A stretch of 64,000 nucleotides of DNA from a virus, in the IMG/VR virus record IMGVR_UViG_3300041964_000014, positions 47,189 through 111,188 of that record; one strand, given 5' to 3'. Of the stretch, positions 17,318-47,339 are shown piece by piece. Made by a program: the position numbers and the translations under genes. Below the pieces are notes generated by a model. That model ran no database searches. It was not told where the DNA came from and saw only the letters and a program-made list of their open reading frames with translations. Numbering within the stretch: the first letter of the stretch is position 1; the number at the start of each line of letters is the position of its first letter.

Positions 17318-18235
17318 ATGACCACTACTATGCCTAAATTAGGGCTGTGTTGTTTAACAGATGATAAGATAATTAGTTATCGCACAATAACTAAGACGAG
17401 GTTTGAGAGACTTAATTACAGCGAACAATATACTGCGCTATATAAGATATATAGCGACAATGTAGCTATGTTTGCTACAGCTATTAAATACTGTAGTGAT
17501 AACGGTATTAAAATGTACCGTGTAACAAGCCATCTATTTCCCTTTTACGAGAGTACCGTAGGAGCAGATATTTTAGATCACTTAACCGATAAGTTGCTAG
17601 ATGTAGGTAATTTAGCGAGAGCATTAGATATAAGGGTAGTAATGCACCCAGATCAATGGGTAGTTCTTAGCTCCGATACTAAAGAAGTTGTGGAGCGTAG
17701 TATCCAGGAACTACAACATCACGCACGAGTGTTTGATGATATGGGATTATCTCAGACACACTATAACTTGCTTAACATTCACGGGGGTAAGAGAGACAGG
17801 CTTAATAACCTGATAAAGGTTATCAATGATTTACCTACCAACGTTAAGTCCCGACTCACATTGGAGAATGACGAAAACTGCTACAGTGTCAGAGAGTTGT
17901 ATAAGGTACACGAGCTGACCAACATACCCATACTCTTTGATTTCCACCATTCAATTATTAATAACAAATTGTGCAGCTATGATCACAAGAAGATTACCGA
18001 AGAATACCAAGTTGCAGCCTCCACATGGTCTCAGCACAGTAACGTCACTACTCATATATCTAATGGCGCTGCTGATTTGTTGGATAGCAAGCATAGTGAT
18101 TATATTGTTAGATATCCAGAGTTACTACTCACAGTACCGTGGGTAGAGGTTGAGGCTCGGAAAAAAGAACTAGCATTGGTACAATTGAAACAAAGTTTAG
18201 AAAACTATTATGGACATGACCACACAAACAATTGA
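17318..18235 (+). CDS. uvsE: UV damage endonuclease
   Basis: LGLCC, YRVTSHLFP, MHPDQWVVLSS, NIHGG, RLTLENDE, FDFHH, HSDY, VEVEARKKELA. Confidence 0.92.
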   Translation: MTTTMPKLGLCCLTDDKIISYRTITKTRFERLNYSEQYTALYKIYSDNVAMFATAIKYCSDNGIKMYRVTSHLFPFYESTVGADILDHLTDKLLDVGNLARALDIRVVMHPDQWVVLSSDTKEVVERSIQELQHHARVFDDMGLSQTHYNLLNIHGGKRDRLNNLIKVINDLPTNVKSRLTLENDENCYSVRELYKVHELTNIPILFDFHHSIINNKLCSYDHKKITEEYQVAASTWSQHSNVTTHISNGAADLLDSKHSDYIVRYPELLLTVPWVEVEARKKELALVQLKQSLENYYGHDHTNN

Positions 18236-19663: not shown

Positions 19664-20047
19664 ATGGCTAACACTAACTTTTTCGGTCGTTTCATCAATC
19701 GTGCAGCTGAAGTTGTTTTTGGTGCTAATGAATCTGATGTACAACAACCAACACTGTCTGTCGAATCATTGCAAGTTGAGCAAATCGAAAAAGATGACGC
19801 GGCTAAAACAGTTACTTTACGGGCACAAGTCGGACTTACTCCAATTGAACTTACAGTCCCCGTGGGTACAACTTACTTGGAAATGATTGAGCTTTCCAAA
19901 AAGCAAGTGCCGGGATTAAATGTCTCAGCTGAGTCCGTGACTATCTTAAATACGGATACTAATGTAACGGTGCCCAACAATGCAATGACAACTCCAGTAC
20001 AGGAAGGTAACTACTCCTTCGAGTCTACTAGCGGTACTGCGGGTTAG
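19664..20047 (+). CDS. Ubiquitin-like (beta-grasp) protein 1, C-terminus ESTSGTAG
   Basis: Terminal Gly motif GTAG (compare PRTRC protein C GTKG); beta-strand/helix pattern TVTL...ELTVPVGTTYLEMIE; directly upstream of JAB/E2/E1. Confidence 0.75.
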   Translation: MANTNFFGRFINRAAEVVFGANESDVQQPTLSVESLQVEQIEKDDAAKTVTLRAQVGLTPIELTVPVGTTYLEMIELSKKQVPGLNVSAESVTILNTDTNVTVPNNAMTTPVQEGNYSFESTSGTAG

Positions 20048-20074
20048 AGATTGATTTAGTTCCGTCTACTGATT

Positions 20075-20118
20075 GAGATACAGGGGATTATACATCTCCT
20101 GTATTTCTTGTTTGTTTG
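20075..20118 (+). terminator. Intrinsic terminator after Ubl1
   Basis: gagatacaggggat-tatac-atctcctgtatttc followed by ttgtttgtttg. Confidence 0.6.
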
Positions 20119-20158
20119 TATAACGTCCACATTCAACTACAAAAGAACGAGAATCACT

Positions 20159-20524
20159 ATGGCTATCAATAACTTCTTCGGTCGCTTCGTTTCCAACTTC
20201 GCCCCTAAGTCCAACGAAGTCTCATTGCCTGTAGAGTCAGTAACTGCCGATATCGAAACAATCTCCGAGAACAAAGAAGATAAGACTGTGACTGTCTCGG
20301 TTACTTATAAATTCACCAGCGAGACATTTACGGTGGCTGTGGGAACGACAATGAACAATTTGTTCAAGTTAATTGCTGCTAAGTTCTCTATTGGCTCACT
20401 CGATGCAGTGGCTATTCTTAATACTGAAACCAATAGTGTTGCAAAGCTAGCCGATGTGCAGGAAACCCCGATCACCGAAGATACTTCTCTGTCTATCGAA
20501 GACACCAGTGGTACAGCTGGTTAA
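20159..20524 (+). CDS. Ubiquitin-like protein 2, C-terminus EDTSGTAG (likely start MAINNFFGRF at 20159)
   Basis: Paralog of Ubl1 over its whole length (NFFGRF, VES, KTVT, TV.VGTT, ILNT.TN, TP, TSGTAG). Confidence 0.75.
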   Translation: MAINNFFGRFVSNFAPKSNEVSLPVESVTADIETISENKEDKTVTVSVTYKFTSETFTVAVGTTMNNLFKLIAAKFSIGSLDAVAILNTETNSVAKLADVQETPITEDTSLSIEDTSGTAG

Positions 20525-20567
20525 TCTGGTAGCAATCAGATAGAGGATAAAGGCGCGTAGTTAATCC

Positions 20568-20600
20568 GGTCTGGGAGTGTAGTGCTTCCAGACCTTTTCT
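20568..20600 (+). terminator. Intrinsic terminator after Ubl2
   Basis: ggtctgggagt-gtagt-gcttccagacc followed by ttttct. Confidence 0.65.
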
Positions 20601-20620
20601 GTAATGTTTAGGAGACACAA

Positions 20621-21526
20621 ATGAGACTTATTAACGGAATGCGTGTTCGGCTAGCTACGGAATATCCGTATGGTAGTTATATCGCCAGAGATACTACCCC
20701 CGAAGAAGGTGGGCTAGAATTCGAGGCTTTGAATTATCTAGACCCTAATCCCGATCTACCGAAAATCCCCCAACAACTGTTTCGTAAGCTGAGTAAGTTC
20801 TTCTACGATTACGCATCTAAATCTCTGGAGGTTCACGCACGAGTAGTATATAACCCTCGTGATAAAAGTTTCCGGGTGTTTGTCCCAACACAAACAATTG
20901 CCGGAGCTAGTGTTGACCACTTTGAATACTCCCATGCCGTAGACCTGGAGACGGGAGAATCAGTATCTCTTCCACACAAAGACTACGCTACTCTGTGGCA
21001 GTTTCATGTGCATCCGTTTGCAATGCCGGGACCTTCTAGTATCGACGATAACGGTTTTCCAAACCAGCCAGGTACTGGAGAACTTGATCGCCCCGGTGGA
21101 TATGGGATATTCAGTTGTTGGAATAAGAACAAAGACGGATATGCTATTTTCACCCTTCGCTGTAACGTAGTTGTTTCGGACGGATTTAAAACCCGTAACA
21201 AGAGACTAGACATTGCTACTAGCGATGTAGTTGAAGGTGTTGAAGATGGTGAGCAGATACTTGTATACAATGTGCCTTACAGTGAATTAGCACATAGTGT
21301 TGTGTCTAGATATATACCAAAGCCTCAAGCGAAAGTAAAAGGCGGCGTTAATCTACTTAACGTCCAGTATCTGCCTAAGAATTTTGTTTCCCAAGCACAA
21401 GCATCAGACTATCTAGCGTTAGATAGCGTAATACACTCTCACTCTTTAGAGGAAGTGTTAATGGCACTTCAGATTAAGTACGACAAGGCTCAAATAGAAA
21501 CAGCACTGAATACAATGTTTGGCTGA
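20621..21526 (+). CDS. JAB/JAMM (MPN+) metalloisopeptidase, PRTRC protein A-like
   Basis: Upstream Glu (SLEVHA), VP.Q....ASV, and JAMM motif H-x-H-x7-S-x2-D in FHVHPFAMPGPSSIDD. Confidence 0.85.
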   Translation: MRLINGMRVRLATEYPYGSYIARDTTPEEGGLEFEALNYLDPNPDLPKIPQQLFRKLSKFFYDYASKSLEVHARVVYNPRDKSFRVFVPTQTIAGASVDHFEYSHAVDLETGESVSLPHKDYATLWQFHVHPFAMPGPSSIDDNGFPNQPGTGELDRPGGYGIFSCWNKNKDGYAIFTLRCNVVVSDGFKTRNKRLDIATSDVVEGVEDGEQILVYNVPYSELAHSVVSRYIPKPQAKVKGGVNLLNVQYLPKNFVSQAQASDYLALDSVIHSHSLEEVLMALQIKYDKAQIETALNTMFG

Positions 21527-21531
21527 TCAAT

Positions 21532-22305
21532 ATGGTACAAGTTACTACTCCACCTAACATACAAGCTATTGTGACTGTATCTGATTCTGATGAAGATACT
21601 GTTGCAAGAGGGATGATTCTATTGTGTGATGAAATTGATGTGCGCCTACAAGTCCGCCGTGGTGTACTGTCGGAGGCAATATACTACGAGCGTTGCAGAA
21701 ACTGCAAAACCAGGGCACAGAATAAGTGCATTGGGGGAATGAAAATAATCAAAGACCATCTGTGTCCCGAAGGTGTAACTGCAAGATCCGAAATAGCATA
21801 TATCCCCAAAAGATTACCTCAGCACATTGTGTACATTGATGGATCTCTGGAATACTATCTCTTTGTAGTTGAAGGGGAGATAACACCGGAAGGGAATCTC
21901 AGGGTATTTCCCATGATGCTAGGTAACATAACTACATACGGCTCACTTTGTTCTGGAAATATGAGAACAAGGAGATGGAATTTCGCTGAATCATATGCAG
22001 CTATTTGGCAGCTGCTATGGACTGGCGATTACAACTATACAGAGCATTCTATTGCTCAGCTAATCGAGAACTGGTCTCCGGAATGGCAGAAAGAAAACTA
22101 CAGATACGATGATCTAGATACACTGTACAAAGACTTGTTTAGTTTAGTGGGAATACGTTCCTTAGATCAGACAGTAATAAGGCAGCCGGGTACTTACGAT
22201 ATATACAATGCTCGTGAGCTTTACTCAAGCAAAGTATCGGAACTGATAAAAGACGGATATGAATACTTGAACTGCCGAGTGCTAGGCAAAAGGATAGATA
22301 GCTAA
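21532..22305 (+). CDS. Prokaryotic E2-like conjugating protein (PRTRC protein B-like)
   Basis: FPMMLGNITTYGSLCSG matches the E2 N-x4-G-x2-C active-site signature; sits between JAB and E1. Confidence 0.65.
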   Translation: MVQVTTPPNIQAIVTVSDSDEDTVARGMILLCDEIDVRLQVRRGVLSEAIYYERCRNCKTRAQNKCIGGMKIIKDHLCPEGVTARSEIAYIPKRLPQHIVYIDGSLEYYLFVVEGEITPEGNLRVFPMMLGNITTYGSLCSGNMRTRRWNFAESYAAIWQLLWTGDYNYTEHSIAQLIENWSPEWQKENYRYDDLDTLYKDLFSLVGIRSLDQTVIRQPGTYDIYNARELYSSKVSELIKDGYEYLNCRVLGKRIDS

Positions 22306-23192
22306 TGCAACTCAATCAAACAACTTTGTATGTGGTAGGTTGTGGTGGAACGGGAGGTCGTTTGCTAGACTTACTAGCGGACTATTTTGCCTTTAGCCAC
22401 AACTACCCTAATCGTATAGTTCTAGTAGACGATGACAAAATCGAAGAACGCAATGCCGAAAGACAGGTGTTTGACAGATTAGACGCAGGTAGATATAAAG
22501 TAGAAGTACTTAAAGACCGATTTATTACAAAGTCCGGGTTTGGTCGTGTAGAAGCGCTTCCCGTAAAGTGGACACCTGAAACACTTCCCCATGATTTGGG
22601 GAAAATGTCGGAGGCAGGAGCTTCTATCAGTTTGTTTATCTGCATAGACAATGCAAGGGGGCGTAACGCACTGTGGTCGTATATAGTGGGATATTACGAC
22701 TCAGTTAAGCGGGAGTACGAGAAAGCCGAAGTTGCATACAAAGGTAACTTTCTTATCGTAGATGGTGGGAATGGCACGTATGATGGTCAGGTAACTACTT
22801 GCTTACGGGTGCGCTACGAAAACTTTGACTGCATTTTAGGGCAAGACCCTAGAGTTCTTTTCGAGAACGTTCGTAACGCAGATCCCCGAATCACGGGTTG
22901 TGCCGCTGCCGAGGGCGATGACGTTGCCCAAACAGTGATGGCAAATATGCAAGTAGCCACACTTATGTTTAGTGAATTTGTTAGTGCAATAACCACTCAC
23001 AAATTTCAACCGTTAATCAAGTTTGATTTACAGCAACGTCGAATGTTACCTGTCGGCGCAATGTGCGACTTGGGTGCTGAATACACGGCATTCATCACCG
23101 AAAAAACAGCCGCACTAGAAGCAGCCGCTAACACTCAAATAGTTGAGACTGCTGAAGCTACGACCGAAACAGTAATTGAAGTCACCGTTTAG
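22305..23192 (+). CDS. ThiF/E1-family Ubl-activating enzyme
   Basis: VVGCGGTG, LVDDDKIEERNAERQ, GRYKVEVL, CIDNARGR, DGGNG, candidate catalytic Cys in ITGCA, Q..MAN. Confidence 0.92.
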   Translation: MQLNQTTLYVVGCGGTGGRLLDLLADYFAFSHNYPNRIVLVDDDKIEERNAERQVFDRLDAGRYKVEVLKDRFITKSGFGRVEALPVKWTPETLPHDLGKMSEAGASISLFICIDNARGRNALWSYIVGYYDSVKREYEKAEVAYKGNFLIVDGGNGTYDGQVTTCLRVRYENFDCILGQDPRVLFENVRNADPRITGCAAAEGDDVAQTVMANMQVATLMFSEFVSAITTHKFQPLIKFDLQQRRMLPVGAMCDLGAEYTAFITEKTAALEAAANTQIVETAEATTETVIEVTV

Positions 23193-23809
23193 TGAGAAAT
23201 ACCATGAACCAAGAATTGTACACCAGACTAATCGACCAAGGAATGAATGAAGAAGCTGCTAGTGCAATAGCCGCTGACTTTAGCCAAGTGACTCGTGCAA
23301 AGAAACTACCTAAGCAAACACTATCTACTTGGTCAGACGAGTATGTTGCGGCATCGGCTAAGTTGCGTTTACAAGCTATATCTTCTTTAATCGCAGTCTT
23401 AGGATTGCAACCATCTCCTCAAATGGTAATGGAAGTAAAAAACTTTGAACCCGAAACCATTGAAATACTACGACGACTAGGGGCTTTAATGGAGAGCAAA
23501 TGGATAACAATGCGAAACACAGGAGGCAAGTTGCAAGAACTAGCAAATGAGCTAAATGGCAATAAGGGTAAAAAGCCTATAGTCCAAGCCTCCGAAGATG
23601 TTGACGAGATGTTGAACTTAGTATCTTCCGTGGTAATACCAACAAGTGAAATAGAGGAGTCCGAAATAAAAAAGGAGGAGGGTGATTTGGAGTCTGTTGA
23701 TGCTTTGGCACTAGCAGAACTTGAGGATAAAACCGATACACCTGAAACCTCGGAGATGTTAGGTATGGGCGCGTTGCCGGACGATTTCGACGTGTCTAAG
23801 TTCTACTAA
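23192..23809 (+). CDS. Hypothetical helical protein with acidic C-terminal tail
   Basis: Abuts the E1 gene; ends ALPDDFDVSKFY; followed by a gtggggctaa/ttagcccccac hairpin. Confidence 0.7.
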   Translation: MRNTMNQELYTRLIDQGMNEEAASAIAADFSQVTRAKKLPKQTLSTWSDEYVAASAKLRLQAISSLIAVLGLQPSPQMVMEVKNFEPETIEILRRLGALMESKWITMRNTGGKLQELANELNGNKGKKPIVQASEDVDEMLNLVSSVVIPTSEIEESEIKKEEGDLESVDALALAELEDKTDTPETSEMLGMGALPDDFDVSKFY

Positions 23810-23873: not shown

Positions 23874-25328
23874 ATGGTTGATAAGTTAGTGTTAGAGCAG
23901 TATCTTTTAGATACTTTAAAACAAAATAAAGAACTGTTTGATTTAGTAGTAAATAAACAATACATACTATACGGAGAGTATTTAGGCACATTACTGGTTA
24001 ATAAAGTAATGCAGCTAAATTATTCGTTACCTAAGCCTACCTTACTTCGTTTAGATCCTACTAATAAAACTAATGGATATTCAGAGGTAATAGAATATCC
24101 TACATACGTTATTAGTATTACTTCTAATATAGGTTTACTGGATAGTTGTACTAATTTTAATAGTTGCTTTATTACTAGTACTGATGTTGTTATTTCAGAT
24201 AGCTTTGTAGAACTACTAAATACCAAACAATTAGAGATAGTTAATATTAATCCGCTATCGAAAGCTTTAGCAGAGTTAGTTTATCTAGCCGATAGGTACA
24301 AGGGATACTTATATGCTAATATTACCAAAGCTATTGCAATGGCTAAAGATATTAGCAGGTTAATGGCTTCTCCAGAATGCAGTTTAATTACTTCAAACAC
24401 TAACGCTGGTATATTAAAAACACTAACCGATATTGAAATTAAATGGGTTACTTTAGATGTCTACAAAGACTCGTTAGTACCTTTAGTCGTGCTTCCTGAA
24501 GTATCGTTATTACCGGATAATATTTCCAAATACTCTAAAAGCCATCTTGCCCATGATGATACTTTATCTCAATGTTATTTAGCATTAGCTAATTGCTTAT
24601 ACGGTAACGGTGTTAAAAAGTCTGCTAGAGAAAACAAGTTAATAGTATTAGAATATCCTGAACTATACCCGTATGTTGTAAGTAACCTTAGTTACACAGA
24701 TAATCTACCTAACAATTGGAAAGCCAAACTACCTTACTTAAACAAGCTTTTAGCAGAACACAATGTAAGGCTATTTTTTAATAAGCTTAATTTAGCAGAA
24801 CAAATACAGTTACTAGATGAGTTGCGTGGATTAATTAAACAATACGGCTTATGGGTAATTGGTTTATTAGAGCAACAATCTAAATACGATAAAAAAGAGT
24901 TAGTTAAACTAATAGAGTTTAAAAAACTAGAAAATAGCAAATGGTTAGTTCCTCCGTTTAAGCTCCCGGAAATATTCCCATTTGGACTACATAAAACATG
25001 GAAAATAGTTGAGTTAAATACACGCCAACTACTAATACATGAAGGCGAATACCAAGGGCATTGCGTAGGAGGATACAGTGTATCTCCAGCGCATAGAATC
25101 TTCTCATTGAGGAAAGATAAGCTTCGCTATACTCTAGAGATATATTACGATACCTACAAACACAAGTGGATAACAGGACAAGAGCGAGGAAAACATAATT
25201 CCTTGCTAGAAAGTATTGAACCAATCACACAACAAGAACTACGGATTATAATTCCGTGGTTACTCTCAGTACTACCTAGGGTAACTGTTTCTCCGAGTAC
25301 AACAAGCAACGACTACATATACTTTTGA
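23874..25328 (+). CDS. PcfJ-like domain protein
   Basis: C-terminal IVEL.T...L.HEGEYQGHCVGGY...IFSLR....YTLEI...QERGKHN. Confidence 0.75.
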   Translation: MVDKLVLEQYLLDTLKQNKELFDLVVNKQYILYGEYLGTLLVNKVMQLNYSLPKPTLLRLDPTNKTNGYSEVIEYPTYVISITSNIGLLDSCTNFNSCFITSTDVVISDSFVELLNTKQLEIVNINPLSKALAELVYLADRYKGYLYANITKAIAMAKDISRLMASPECSLITSNTNAGILKTLTDIEIKWVTLDVYKDSLVPLVVLPEVSLLPDNISKYSKSHLAHDDTLSQCYLALANCLYGNGVKKSARENKLIVLEYPELYPYVVSNLSYTDNLPNNWKAKLPYLNKLLAEHNVRLFFNKLNLAEQIQLLDELRGLIKQYGLWVIGLLEQQSKYDKKELVKLIEFKKLENSKWLVPPFKLPEIFPFGLHKTWKIVELNTRQLLIHEGEYQGHCVGGYSVSPAHRIFSLRKDKLRYTLEIYYDTYKHKWITGQERGKHNSLLESIEPITQQELRIIIPWLLSVLPRVTVSPSTTSNDYIYF

Positions 25329-42854: not shown

Positions 42855-45800
42855 ATGGACTTATTATCACAAGAGAGTTACCTAAAGTACTATCAGTTAA
42901 TCAATCCGCAGTATATTAGCTGGGACTTTTATTCGCAGTATTTAGACAAAGAACCCCCATTTGGTGAGTTAGGGGCAATTGTATTCCTACGTACATACAG
43001 TCGATTTGTGCTTGAACTCAAGCGACGCGAGAAGTTTGCCGAGACTTGTTTACGTGTTGTGGAATACAGTTTATCGCTAGATACTGTTAGCGATACTTAC
43101 GCTCTCCGGGAGGAAGCCGAGCAGTTATTTGATTGTTTATTTAGTTTACGGGGATTTGCTTCGGGACGCTCGTATTGGGTAGCCGGAACTGAGCAAACAA
43201 AACGATGTGGTTCTGCTACGTGGAATTGTTGCTTCCGTACAATGGATAGCATCTCCGCTTTTAGTGAAGTATTTTATTGGTTGCTACTAGGTGCTGGTGT
43301 TGGTTTCTCTGTAGAGAATAAGTATGTCAGCAAGCTGCCTACGTTTAATACTCAAGTAGAAATTAAACATACCCCATACATTTTTAATCAAAGTTATTAC
43401 CCTAATACTCTTATTTATCCCAATGAATCTCGGCTGGATGGCTATACTCTTACAGATACTGATCTAGTTGTTTCGGACGCAGAGTTTCTCCAACATTGGG
43501 GATTTCAGGATGAAGAACACTTTACCGTAATAGTTGGAGATAGTAAAGAAGGCTGGTGTACAGCTTTAAGAGTGTTATTGTATTTACTTACACTACCCAA
43601 CACTAAGTCAATAACATTTAACTATAATAACGTTCGCCCTAAAGGAGAACGTATTAAAGTATTTGGTGGACGTGCTAGTGGTCATCAGAATCTACAAGAT
43701 GTATTGCAACGTACTCACGACATTGTTTGCGAGAGTAAAGGTAAGCTTAATTCTCTTAACGTACTAGATGAAGTTAATACTATAGGTGTTGGAGTAGTTA
43801 GTGGCGGTGTTCGTCGTACTGCTGAAATTGCGTTAGGGGATGCGGATGATACTTATTTTATTGAAGCCAAACAAGATTTATGGACTGATGAGTCAAAGGC
43901 TAAGTATAGGAATATTCGAGTTATGTCTAATAATTCAGTAGTTTTCTATGAAAATCCTGGACTTGAAAAGATACGTGAAATTGTACGTAGAATTCAAACC
44001 AATGGTGAACCGGGCTTTTCTATTGTAGGCAATGCTCAAAAACATGATCCTAATATAAAGGGTTTCAATCCCTGCCATGAAGCCAGTCTTGATTCTCATC
44101 AATCCTGCAATTTAGTGACCGAGAATCTAGTAGCTCATATCTTTGATGGACTACTTGACTATGCTTTATTACAAGATACTTTACGCTTGATTACTCGTGT
44201 TGCGTGTCGTCAAACTACAGCTAGTCAGTGGCATCCACAATGGGACGCAGTACAAAAACGAGACAGACTAATCGGTGTATCGATGACTGGAGTTGAGGAT
44301 GCGTTTGATATTCTAAACTGGGGCGATGAACAAAAAGCTGATTTCTACAACTGGGCAGCAGATATTGTGCGGGATGAGGCAGATAAGTACAACGCTCATC
44401 TAGGTATTGAGAAATCTAAGCGGGTTACTTTGGTTAAACCTGAAGGCTGTGAAGTAATTGAGAGTTTGCGAGTCTTTAACGAAGGTATCCTTCGCATAGA
44501 TGAAATAGACTCCAATATATCTAATAAAACGGGATTTTACAAAAATACTGTTTCTTTGACAACAACACACTGGAATGATAAGGTTAGTAGCTTATTTAAT
44601 AATGGGTTATCTGATATTGCAGAAATTACTCTAAATAATGGTCGCAAGTTGAAGACAACAGTCGAGCATCGATTTCATGTGCAAGGAACATGGAAACGGG
44701 TTTTAGATCTAACTATAGGGGATGTATTAGATGTAGAATTAGGTAGTTATCAAAATAAAAACAATACCCCAATGTATGTTCCTACTAATGGAACAGGACT
44801 TAAGAAGGTTTCTCTACCTACACGAATGTCAGAACCTTTAGCTTGGTTTTTAGCTGCTATTTACGCAAATGGCAGCACTTCTACAAGGGGATATGTAGAT
44901 TTCTGTAGTGGACATTTGTTAGTTTGCACTAAATTCAAACAGATCGTTAAGCAATTATTCGGGGTAAATGTAGAGTTCAAAAAAGACTCTATAAAGGATA
45001 TGTATCGCACTCGTATTAATTCTGTCGATATTTGGCAATATTTGAAAGAAAATAACTGTTTAAAAAGCGATCAGTTTGATCGTGTACCGCTTGTTGTAAG
45101 AAAGTCTAGTCGTCAGAGTGTATTAGCTTTTGTGGCAGGCTATCTAGACACCGATGGCTGTTTTAAAAATAAAACTTGCGCGATTACATCCACGAAACTA
45201 GACTTTGCCCGAAATCTACAAGAAGTGTGCGAAGCCGTTGGATTATCATTCAGTGCTTACGAAACTAAACGAGAAACTACAAAAGGAGAATGTCATTATA
45301 TAGATTTGCAGTTATCCCGTACTTTTAGCACTAAAGATGCAATTGATTATATTAATCAAAACTGCATCAAGGCACAGGAGCATCCAATCCTTTACTCCAG
45401 TAAATCACATAAAAATCCCTATAAAGTAAAATCTATTACTTTACTGGATAACCTTGAAATGACTTATGATATCGAAGTAGAAAATTCACACTGTTACCTA
45501 AATGGGGGAATTAAATCGCATAACACATTAAGTCAATTGCCCACAGTATCGAGTGGTATTGGTAAAGCTTATGCCCCCTATTATCTTCGCCGTATAAGAT
45601 TTTCTAGTCTCGATCCACTAGCATTAGCACTGTATCAGCAAGGTGTGCCTGTAGTACCTGAGAATGGTCAGGGAGACGATTTATTTAGCGAAAAGTGCAA
45701 TACATGGGTATTTACTTTCCCAATAAAAACAAACGCTAAGATCCGTGCTATTGATGAACCTATTGAGGAGCAATTTAAGCGGTACTTGCTGGTACAAAAC

Positions 45801-46129
45801 ACATATGTGCGCGAAGGTTATAATGCGTCTAACACAATGACAGTAGCTCCGATGAGTGGGACAAAGCCGCTGAATTAGTGCATGAACATTGGGGTTCAAT
45901 TATTGGTATTACTTTTCTACCCCGTTTTGATCCACGAGAAGGAGGTAAAGCTGCTTATCCTAATATGCCGTATGAGCCTTGCGAAGAACACGAGTATATC
46001 GAGTACTCGAAACAACTACCTAAGTTAACTGAAAATGATTTAATAAGGTTAGTAGCAAGCTTTGAACAACAAGCAGAAGAACAAACTTTAGACGATGCTT
46101 GTTCGACAGGTGCGTGCCCCGTCCGCTGA
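42855..46129 (+). CDS. nrdJ: Class II (AdoCbl-dependent) ribonucleotide reductase with intein; apparent frameshift near 45860
   Basis: FLRTYSR, WNCCF, GAGVGFS, GGVRRTAEI, FNPCHE (thiyl Cys), CNL, VKPEG|T; C-terminal CSTGACPVR in the next frame (DEWDKAAELVHEHW joins the two). Confidence 0.9.
44448..45524 (+). mobile_element. Intein with LAGLIDADG homing endonuclease (359 aa) in nrdJ
   Basis: VKPEG|CEVIES...TVEHRF...FLAAIYANG...FVAGYLDTDG...TYDIEVENSHCYLNGGIKSHN|TLSQL. Confidence 0.92.
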
Positions 46130-46706: not shown

Positions 46707-47339
46707 ATGCGATTAACTAGTTTACGTACCCGTAAAGGTAACTCCGGTTTTACCGAGCTAATTAAAGGTAACAGAGTACCTAAAAGCGATCAACTTTGCT
46801 TTATTAACAACGGTATTCAACGAGCAGCTACACGGGCTAACTTACTTAACAAAGAATACAACTTTCTGCATAAGGAGGATGCCGAGTTAATTGGCAAGTT
46901 GGTAAACCCTGAGTTAGGTAAACTTATTGCTAGCTTATGGGCGAAGTTAGAACTAAATGAAATGGCTCCACAACTATCTTTACTTGAATCATTTGAAGCA
47001 AGACTGTCCGAAATAAATAAGGGGTTTAAGTCAGAGCATGAGTTTGTGGTATTCCATAGTGTCCCAGCGCTGAAATTTTATATGGTGACTCTGGATATCC
47101 GCGATGTAGAACACTTTGCATGGTGCATCATACATCGCTTCTATGGATATGCTGAGGAAAACTTCAGTGACGAGGTACAGATCACAGGATCGTTTTATAA
47201 CTTGCTGGGTGATTACTTTTTCAATGTATGTCGTTTGATAGAAAAAGATCATTACGGTAAGGTAGAGTACTGGCAAAACCCGCTAACAAACAATCCCCTT
47301 ATTATTTCGGACGCATCTTCCAGCTCCGAGGAACTATAA
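46707..47339 (+). CDS. PduO-type ATP:cob(I)alamin adenosyltransferase-like protein
   Basis: N-terminal RTRKGNSGFTELIKGNRVPKSD (compare YTRTGDxGxTxLxxGxRVxKxD), EFV, IRDVE, YNLLGDYFFNVCR. Confidence 0.65.
   Translation: MRLTSLRTRKGNSGFTELIKGNRVPKSDQLCFINNGIQRAATRANLLNKEYNFLHKEDAELIGKLVNPELGKLIASLWAKLELNEMAPQLSLLESFEARLSEINKGFKSEHEFVVFHSVPALKFYMVTLDIRDVEHFAWCIIHRFYGYAEENFSDEVQITGSFYNLLGDYFFNVCRLIEKDHYGKVEYWQNPLTNNPLIISDASSSSEEL

Follow-up and report, generated by a model that had tools for sequence, protein, structure and literature searches.

In bacteria, experiments have so far demonstrated the conjugation of ubiquitin-like proteins (Ubls) only as a host defence, in Bil and in type II CBASS (an anti-phage signalling system based on cyclic oligonucleotides); for Bub systems, conjugation as such has been shown. 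The PRTRC-type branch of such systems was predicted in 2006, and no test of it has been found in the literature searched. PRTRC cassettes (NCBIfam TIGR03734-03742), as found in the Robbsia andropogonis plasmid p3 and Pseudomonas pQBR103, comprise four core activities: a Gly-ended Ubl (protein C), an E2 of the Prok-E2_D type (protein B), a JAB peptidase (protein A), and an E1 of the ThiF type that is small and has one domain. The same four activities are predicted for a viral locus consisting of five contiguous, co-oriented open reading frames (ORFs) in the order Ubl1-Ubl2-JAB-E2-E1. The locus lies within the stretch of DNA analysed here (64,000 nucleotides, referred to as the window), which represents the 3′ 64 kb of the 111-kb IMG/VR virus record IMGVR_UViG_3300041964_000014 (positions 47,189 to 111,188; estimated completeness 76%). 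An earlier note on this DNA described the five genes as a complete conjugation system, and all the features it listed have been found where it placed them. It is likely, in our judgement, that the cassette is a self-contained Ubl-conjugation pathway used by the phage in infection. Eukaryotic viruses exploit ubiquitin; a virulent-type phage in which a complete and compact set of E1, E2, and JAB is accompanied by two ready-made Ubls suggests that bacterial viruses use protein tagging themselves.

The resemblance of this parts list to PRTRC and other prokaryotic Ubl operons, also proposed in the earlier note, is upheld by profile, fold, and motif evidence; four of the five domain calls are well supported and the JAB call moderately. 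The top NCBIfam match of the window E1 is TIGR03736, although at 42.6 bits it does not reach the cut-off of 144.75, and the E2 gives 13.4 bits with TIGR03737, again without reaching the cut-off (131.45). The closest annotated plasmid relatives of the E1 are PRTRC ThiF proteins, with which it has Cys199 in common. The differences are, however, considerable. The gene order is not that of PRTRC (ParB-E-C-F-B-A-ThiF), and Pfam and NCBIfam reveal none of the PRTRC proteins E, F, and ParB among the neighbouring ORFs. The window Ubl is duplicated and comprises 121-127 aa with an N-terminal leader, whereas the PRTRC Ubl has ~70 aa; the presence of an extra four-Cys cluster in the E2 and the virulent-looking phage carrier are likewise unlike PRTRC. 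Thus, the nearest named relatives all belong to PRTRC, but because no component scores above a PRTRC cut-off and ParB, E, and F are missing, the cassette has not been filed as PRTRC, the core of which it would nevertheless resemble in its workings. Judging by sequence similarity, which is weak and consistent, it appears to be a very divergent, reduced relative of the PRTRC/Prok-E2_D group. What is new here is a very small, virus-only family with duplicated leader-bearing Ubls, a four-Cys E2, and no ParB.

The likeness to the anti-phage systems Bil and Cap2/Cap3 holds as far as shared superfamilies and analogy go, but the architectures differ. Like the window cassette, Bil operons (type I/II, BilABCD) have separate genes for Ubl, E2, JAB, and E1, lack an E3, and use a Gly-ended Ubl, the terminal Gly of which is obligatory, while the E2 is thought to pick the target (10.1101/2023.09.04.556158; PMC11601596). 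The Bil E1, however, has the IAD-AAD-CYS organisation and its Ubl has two domains (PMC11601596; 10.1101/2023.09.04.556158), whereas the window E1 is one domain of 295 aa and the Ubl one β-grasp; no sequence similarity is detectable between them, and Bil is host-encoded and directed against phages, in contrast to a phage-encoded cassette. Bub (6E/DUF6527) and type II CBASS Cap2/Cap3 resemble the window in employing E1/E2/JAB-based conjugation on mobile elements. In Bub, the components are fused (Ubl-E2, JAB-E1, or E2-E1), the E2 has a catalytic Ser, and a BubE protease is present (PMC11601596), while the window has separate genes and a Cys in the E2; Cap2 is an E2-E1 fusion that conjugates the CD-NTase. 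Neither DUF6527 nor CD-NTase is matched by any cassette protein in Pfam and PADLOC, and the E1-E2 models of PADLOC match residues 2-90 only of the window E1. A phage-encoded Gly-ended Ubl beside a JAB is also known from lambda and T1, whose proteins I (Ubl) and K (JAB plus NlpC/P60) serve in tail assembly (PMC1779556), but this pair belongs to the tail module and is not accompanied by E1 and E2, whereas the window cassette lies outside the structural module and includes both.

The E1 had been recognised by its GCGGTG and NAERQ motifs and a candidate catalytic Cys, all of which are present, and Pfam ThiF matches it with 58.1 bits (cut-off 28.1), as a single-domain adenylating enzyme of the ThiF type. 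In the family profile, the GxGGxG, DxD, N..RQ, and K motifs are aligned to those of MccB and Uba1, and D115 falls within a conserved C-[IV]-D motif. Among 14 PRTRC-like E1s from PRTRC, plasmid, and other viral loci, C199 is kept in all 14 and C166 is not; therefore, C199 is the candidate catalytic residue, on which an E1~Ubl thioester would be formed.

A predicted complex of the E1 with Ubl1, one of the checks suggested for this locus, reaches a score of 0.77, as against 0.01 for the best of three controls. In a benchmark, this score is attained by 58 of 80 solved complexes and by 2 of 110 mismatched pairs, a guide that is only rough for the window proteins with their own four-row alignments. 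Three runs share at least 94% of the contacts, and the partner pLDDT is at least 76. In the model, residues 120-127 of Ubl1 contact the E1 at residues 12-17 (the Gly loop), 113-117 (around the Mg-site Asp115), and 178-189 (a family-specific loop), so that the Ubl tail is placed in the adenylation site in what is the canonical adenylation geometry. Since the MoeB-MoaD and ThiF-ThiS complexes have already been solved, this result may reflect likeness to them rather than binding by the window proteins themselves.

The E2-like protein indeed contains the NITTYGSLC motif ascribed to it (GNITTYGSLC), and none of the 11 sequences of its family deviates at N132, C140, G142, or D166. N132 and C140, spaced as Asn-x7-Cys like their counterparts in UBCs, line up with the P.PN....C.G motif found in Prok-E2_D proteins, and a lineage-specific cluster of four invariant Cys (C55, C58, C66, and C78) is seen in the family alignment. 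The AlphaFold2 (AF2) model (pLDDT 83, pTM 0.78) has the ubiquitin-conjugating (UBC) fold that was to be looked for: E2s fill nearly all of the top ~30 places in the wide VIA-align search (best Z 5.5, root mean square deviation (rmsd) 3.6, 117 residues aligned), and in pdb_via, E2s account for 21 of the top 22 rows (Z 5.7-3.7; best rmsd 3.4, 121 aligned), followed by an unrelated row at Z 2.6. Foldseek gives nothing significant in PDB or BFVD; the UBC fold is seen by VIA-align only, a search that does not depend on Foldseek. At the sequence level, a six-frame search of the genome with Prok-E2_D retrieves the E2 at 21.2 bits, and the profile hidden Markov model (HMM) of the E2 family matches protein B of the pQBR103 PRTRC cassette (18.9 bits) and a cyanobacterial plasmid E2-like protein (~20 bits), the latter with both the N..G..C.G and the downstream DY motif aligned. 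Prok-E2_D reaches E < 0.01 in just 1 of the 11 family members, and a comparison by hhalign of the window E2 family with the viral Prok-E2_D family, though not significant (E 0.22), aligns the active-site motifs. The E2 is close to being an orphan: among 1.84 billion representatives searched exhaustively with HMMER, 10 related proteins are found. A tblastn search against phages yields nothing, a word-based protein search returns the E2 itself only, and searches of PDB sequences give chance-level matches only.

The two proteins described as paralogues ending in TSGTAG are 41% identical and do both end in this way. In an alignment of four Ubls, two from the window and two from a related viral contig (L002, see below), the N-terminal N-F-F..F and the C-terminal S-G-T-A-G do not vary, the terminal Gly being present in 4/4. 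The conserved N-terminal peptide reads NFF[GS][RK]F; in Ubl1, NFFGRF is followed by a disordered linker of ~30 aa, a single β-grasp domain (~45-123), and a tail to Gly127. In the AF2 model of Ubl1, pLDDT is 65-80 in the core and <50 for residues 1-32, and the topology is strand-strand-strand-helix-strand-strand-strand with a loose tail. The proposed β-grasp has been borne out by this model: all of the top 50 VIA-align rows are β-grasp or Ubl domains (Z 6.9-5.1), such as Rad60 SLD2 (Z 6.3, rmsd 2.2, 67 aligned) and MoaD (Z 6.2, rmsd 3.1, 73 aligned), and MoaD is also the best Foldseek match (E 0.04, probability 0.93). Neither Ubl is matched in NCBIfam at E ≤ 0.1, and a six-frame search of the genome with Prok_Ub gives no match.

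The N-terminal leader was also considered as a member of a head-protein leader family, an idea that was dropped: a simple motif scan gave one loosely similar N-terminus (IANF). We take the NFF[GS][RK]F peptide to resemble known N-terminal protease recognition signals. It is a long shot that the leader of a conjugated Ubl might be read by a second machine, either a host AAA+ protease or a phage assembly that loads tagged proteins. If an AAA+ protease were the reader, this would amount to phage-encoded targeted degradation, like the ubiquitin-proteasome or Pup-Mpa pathways; if the Ubl were a transferable handle, the two Ubls, and the two E2s of L002, would serve different target sets.

For the third component, the JAMM signature E...HxHx7SxxD, reported as intact, is so (E70, H129, H131, S139, and D142), with identical spacing in 5/5 family members; the catalytic region spans residues ~60-145. 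Comparison by hhalign with a PRTRC_A/Mov34 alignment gives E 0.01, and both LEVHARVVYNP and HVHx7SSID are matched to the equivalent blocks. The family HMM matches gp247c of Salmonella phage Arash at 15.1 bits, and gp247c itself passes the Pfam Prok-JAB model (31.8 bits). Prok-JAB and PRTRC protein A are also the structural neighbours in the ESM Atlas, as found with a poor model (pLDDT 0.38, TM 0.37-0.44). No direct match has been obtained in Pfam, in NCBIfam (at E ≤ 0.1), or in PDB sequences, where matches are at chance level only; six-frame genome searches are blank with Prok-JAB and with PRTRC_A (TIGR03735), the control of the latter being likewise unmatched. The JAB identity of this gene is probable rather than proven.

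The same gene set and order recur in L002, a viral contig of 127 kb, where the UV-damage endonuclease gene UvdE and a 116-aa gene precede two Ubls (SSGTAG), four small genes, the JAB, two E2s, the E1, and a homologue of the 205-aa protein encoded after the window E1. Relatives of the E1, E2, and JAB are also found on contigs whose lengths coincide (33,618; 73,158; and 6,851 bases), which probably implies three further co-occurrences. The motif spacing, the invariant E2 residues, and the recurrence in L002 are more than chance. The Ubl pair is 41% identical in the window and 73% in L002; therefore, the pair is maintained, yet it is duplicating or converting within each lineage. Searches of 185,579 bacterial species genomes reveal no close relative of the cassette; the matches are distant E1s only (23-31% identity over long stretches, ≤42% over short ones), many of them cyanobacterial. 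Scanning viral and metagenome sequences with the window E1 and with the proteins P0003, P0010, and P0013 adds no further close loci. As to the differences in L002, the four small genes form an insertion that separates the Ubls from the JAB (L002:3868-5386), and the E2 is duplicated (L002:6422-7942), the copies being 40% identical and both having the four-Cys cluster and the N...C motif.

Domain identities, catalytic motifs, the predicted E1-Ubl geometry, and the conservation of the gene set have been shown computationally; all the chemical steps, the way in which the E2 chooses targets, and the gain for the phage, which would lie in the remodelling of host or phage proteins, are what we infer. 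The ThiF-type E1, which is probably homodimeric as other minimal E1s are, would bind either Ubl, draw the ...SGTAG tail of the latter, which is flexible, into the ATP/Mg site, and adenylate the terminal Gly. The Ubl would then be relayed, probably via a thioester on Cys199 of the E1, to Cys140 of the UBC-fold E2, which would conjugate it to target proteins. Because no E3 is encoded, the N-terminal module of the E2 with its four-Cys cluster would most likely select the targets. The JAMM peptidase may remove or edit the conjugates; maturation should not require it, as each Ubl is synthesised with its terminal Gly in place. A terminator hairpin after each Ubl gene may keep Ubl transcripts above those of the enzymes. 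Terminase and replication genes are present, which bears out the phage context, and no tyrosine integrase has been found; the co-oriented cassette follows small early-type genes, lies just upstream of the replication module, and is therefore probably expressed early to middle in infection. The system offers several experimental handles, namely Ubls that require no processing, one candidate catalytic Cys per enzyme, an E2 module that looks metal-binding, and the conserved N-terminal peptide of the Ubls.

A number of points weigh against a conjugation pathway. The Pfam Prok-E2_D match (PF14460) over the E2 active-site region, at 20.7 bits (E 3.7e-4), is below the cut-off of 25, and the fold matches of the E2 are modest (Z <6). 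The AF2 model of the Ubl has a mean pLDDT of 63 and is built on a four-row alignment, and the JAB call consists of a short motif plus weak profile matches. A thioester relay may not be assumed, as some Bub E1s and E2s use non-Cys chemistry or lack the E1 catalytic Cys (PMC11601596). The function of PRTRC has never been studied (PMC13366799), and the record is just 76% complete.

What the phage does with such a pathway can only be conjectured: the earlier note offered the tagging of host or phage proteins or, alternatively, the decoying and reversal of host Ubl-based defence. In the latter case, conjugates of the host would be stripped by the JAB, and/or the phage Ubls, as decoys, would load or jam host enzymes of Bil, type II CBASS, or similar systems. 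Phages are indeed attacked by Ubl systems of their hosts, the JABs of which reverse conjugation (10.1101/2023.09.04.556158; PMC11601596); Ubls that need no processing leave the JAB free to deconjugate, and a location among early-type genes is compatible with this role. However, a decoy or a deconjugase needs no E1 and E2 of its own, yet both are conserved with intact catalytic residues; beyond the shared superfamilies, nothing in the cassette is Bil- or Cap2/Cap3-like (PADLOC covers the first ~85 E1 residues only). We regard counter-defence as unlikely. The use of the cassette as a weapon seems improbable too. It would protect the infected cell by Bil-like tagging of structural proteins that belong to superinfecting phages or to other mobile elements, much as Bil puts its Ubl on a phage tail fibre without an E3, the E2 picking the target (10.1101/2023.09.04.556158; PMC11601596). 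The two diverged E2s of L002 would suit such a use, and an E2 with variable targets fits the PRTRC protein B of a Phocaeicola prophage, which is diversified by a diversity-generating retroelement (DGR) (bioRxiv 10.64898/2026.10.01.756045). On the other hand, no DGR is seen near the window cassette, the architecture with its single-domain E1 and single β-grasp Ubl is not Bil-like, and the exclusion of competitors matters less in the short lytic cycle of a phage that looks virulent, an integrase not having been found.

The similarity to PRTRC raises the thought that the cassette modifies the replication or partition proteins of its own element, a role suspected for plasmid PRTRC and its ParB, and is a replication accessory rather than a tool for host takeover. 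PRTRC parts are the closest match for each of the four components, plasmid PRTRC cassettes and their relatives adjoin replication and recombination genes (dnaN, exonuclease, Rad52, SSB), and the window cassette is situated just upstream of the replication module. Proteins E and F and ParB are, however, absent from the cassette and the examined record. The initial remark that no ParB and no sulfur-transfer genes occur nearby can be extended to the whole 111-kb record (76% complete), in which ParB_N is matched nowhere, while its control is matched in 11 of 14 genomes. Moreover, an appeal to PRTRC, itself of unstudied function, would only shift the question; we give this housekeeping role rather little credence. 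It is very improbable that the Ubl is a sulfur carrier, the thiocarboxylate of which donates sulfur for the modification of a cofactor, nucleoside, or DNA, as in ThiF-ThiS, MoeB-MoaD, and TtuC-TtuB. The minimal ThiF-type E1, MoaD as the top Foldseek match of the Ubl, and a weak NCBIfam similarity to ThiF and MoeB are in line with this role, but the NCBIfam scores are far below the cut-offs, and the conserved Cys-bearing E2 and the JAB peptidase would be without a role in sulfur transfer. Nor does the 111-kb record contain Rhodanese, ATP_bind_3 (PP-loop thiolase), or other sulfur-relay genes, the controls of these searches being matched. A conjugation pathway used in infection remains the preferred interpretation of the locus, the features of which are collected in Table 1.

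Table 1. Genes and RNA features in and around the Ubl-conjugation cassette (positions in the window)
Feature	Position	Strand	Remarks
UvdE/UvsE UV-damage endonuclease	17318-18235		Pfam 200.9 bits; 1.4 kb upstream of the cassette; 56% identical to the counterpart at this relative position in L002
Upstream conserved gene, 116 aa	19261..19611	+	immediately before Ubl1; 36% identical to its positional counterpart in L002 (E 6e-22)
Ubl1, 127 aa	19664..20047	+	ends TSGTAG, then stop
Hairpin and U-run after Ubl1	20075..20107	+	14-bp stem; minimum free energy (MFE) -19.1 kcal/mol, z -5.0; 0/200 shuffles fold as well
Ubl2, 121 aa from ATG at 20159	20159..20524	+	ATG matches the Ubl1 N-terminus; ends TSGTAG, then stop
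Hairpin and U-run after Ubl2	20568..20594	+	12-bp stem in pattern scan, 11 bp paired in RNA fold; MFE -18.8 kcal/mol, z -4.5
JAB (probable), 301 aa	20621..21526	+	E70 (in LEVHA), H129-V-H131-x7-S139-S-I-D142
E2, 257 aa	21532..22305	+	GNITTYGSLC, N132...C140
E1, 295 aa	22305..23192	+	VVGCGGTGG, NAERQ
Downstream gene, 205 aa (or 201 aa from ATG at 23204)	23192..23809	+	acidic C-terminus; GTG overlaps the E1 stop by one base

The genes of the cassette are closely packed towards its 3′ end. The JAB and E2 genes are separated by 5 nt, and the one-base overlap reported for E2 and E1 is found in the sequence TAATG, where the last A of the E2 stop codon TAA is the A of the E1 ATG. The longest ORF of Ubl2 opens at a TTG (20108). 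The hairpins following the Ubl genes occupy the same position in the window and in L002 and differ in sequence, all four having z from -4.5 to -5.7. The gene downstream of the E1 starts 0-11 nt from its stop, and its 205-aa product, which is 29% identical over 164 aa (E 1e-18) to that of the gene following the E1 in L002 and has no informative family or ESM Atlas match, may serve as accessory or adaptor or be a target. The 116-aa upstream gene has no family match, and its membership in the system is uncertain.

As for the carrier, a long plus-strand run includes UvdE, primase, helicase, a family A polymerase, an exonuclease, a class II ribonucleotide reductase (RNR), and RNA ligase; it is preceded, at the start of the window, by the gene of a large terminase on the minus strand. 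With the terminase of any deposited phage it shares no more than 38% identity, and the lineage is therefore an uncultured one; a DNA-level search against deposited phages gives no match. The phage looks virulent, no tyrosine integrase having been found in the record. Two neighbouring genes deserve mention. Directly after the cassette, a 484-aa gene (23874-25328) shows a weak C-terminal PcfJ-like match (22.6 bits, cut-off 25) and is absent from the examined part of L002. The RNR gene (42855-45878, 1007 aa) shows a match to ribonucleotide reductase in residues 6-531, while residues 540-764 correspond to a terminase-family PHROG, which may be an inserted element or a fused domain.

The occurrence of such a system in a phage is not as rare as had been implied, since PRTRC-type cassettes have been annotated in temperate phages and 14 viral loci combine an E1 with Prok-E2_D, in addition to the ThiF/Prok-JAB/E2_D-like trio of Arash. 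A PRTRC cassette is annotated in the Burkholderia gladioli phage AB2 (PMC13366799), and the DGR-associated one mentioned above belongs to a Phocaeicola prophage. The 14 IMG/VR loci (L003-L016) represent a second, commoner viral cassette, in some cases located beside RusA, and its E2 of 205 aa is above the Pfam Prok-E2_D cut-off. These loci and Arash resemble the window in that a ThiF-type phage E1 is accompanied by a Prok-E2_D-type E2 with the P.PN....C.G motif, and Arash also has a Prok-JAB. They differ from it in gene order and sizes, with an E1 identity of only 22-29%, and no duplicated Ubl, NFF leader, or four-Cys cluster has been seen in them. The order in the second cassette (e.g., L010:6577-10888) is a 338-aa protein, a protein of ~130 aa that ends in HKKG and might be the modifier, the E1 (221 aa), a 276-aa protein, the E2 (205 aa), and a Lin1244-like protein.

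Salmonella phage Arash (OQ632216.1) is cultured, virulent, and 181 kb in size; its gp248c-gp246c are the E2_D-like protein, Prok-JAB, and ThiF E1 (L029:1519-4539), the E2_D-like motif being PFPN....MCVG. No Gly-ended Ubl is found in the 8 kb examined, and the genome paper of Arash mentions neither ThiF nor ubiquitin. The "structural protein" labels of the Arash E1 and E2 were not accepted as a sign of virion packaging, as the list of 116 proteins obtained by liquid chromatography–mass spectrometry includes RNA polymerase and RNR. Since the window phage is uncultured, the related cassette of Arash may be a practical entry point for experiments.

Outside viruses, the closest relatives of the window E1 and E2 occur in cassettes of the order E2-like, JAB(Mov34)-like, and ThiF on cyanobacterial plasmids of Leptolyngbya and Chondrocystis (L024:3902-7774 and L027:3148-6786). 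The small proteins encoded upstream in these cassettes end in ...RGF and ...SGLI and may be Ubl precursors that need trimming.

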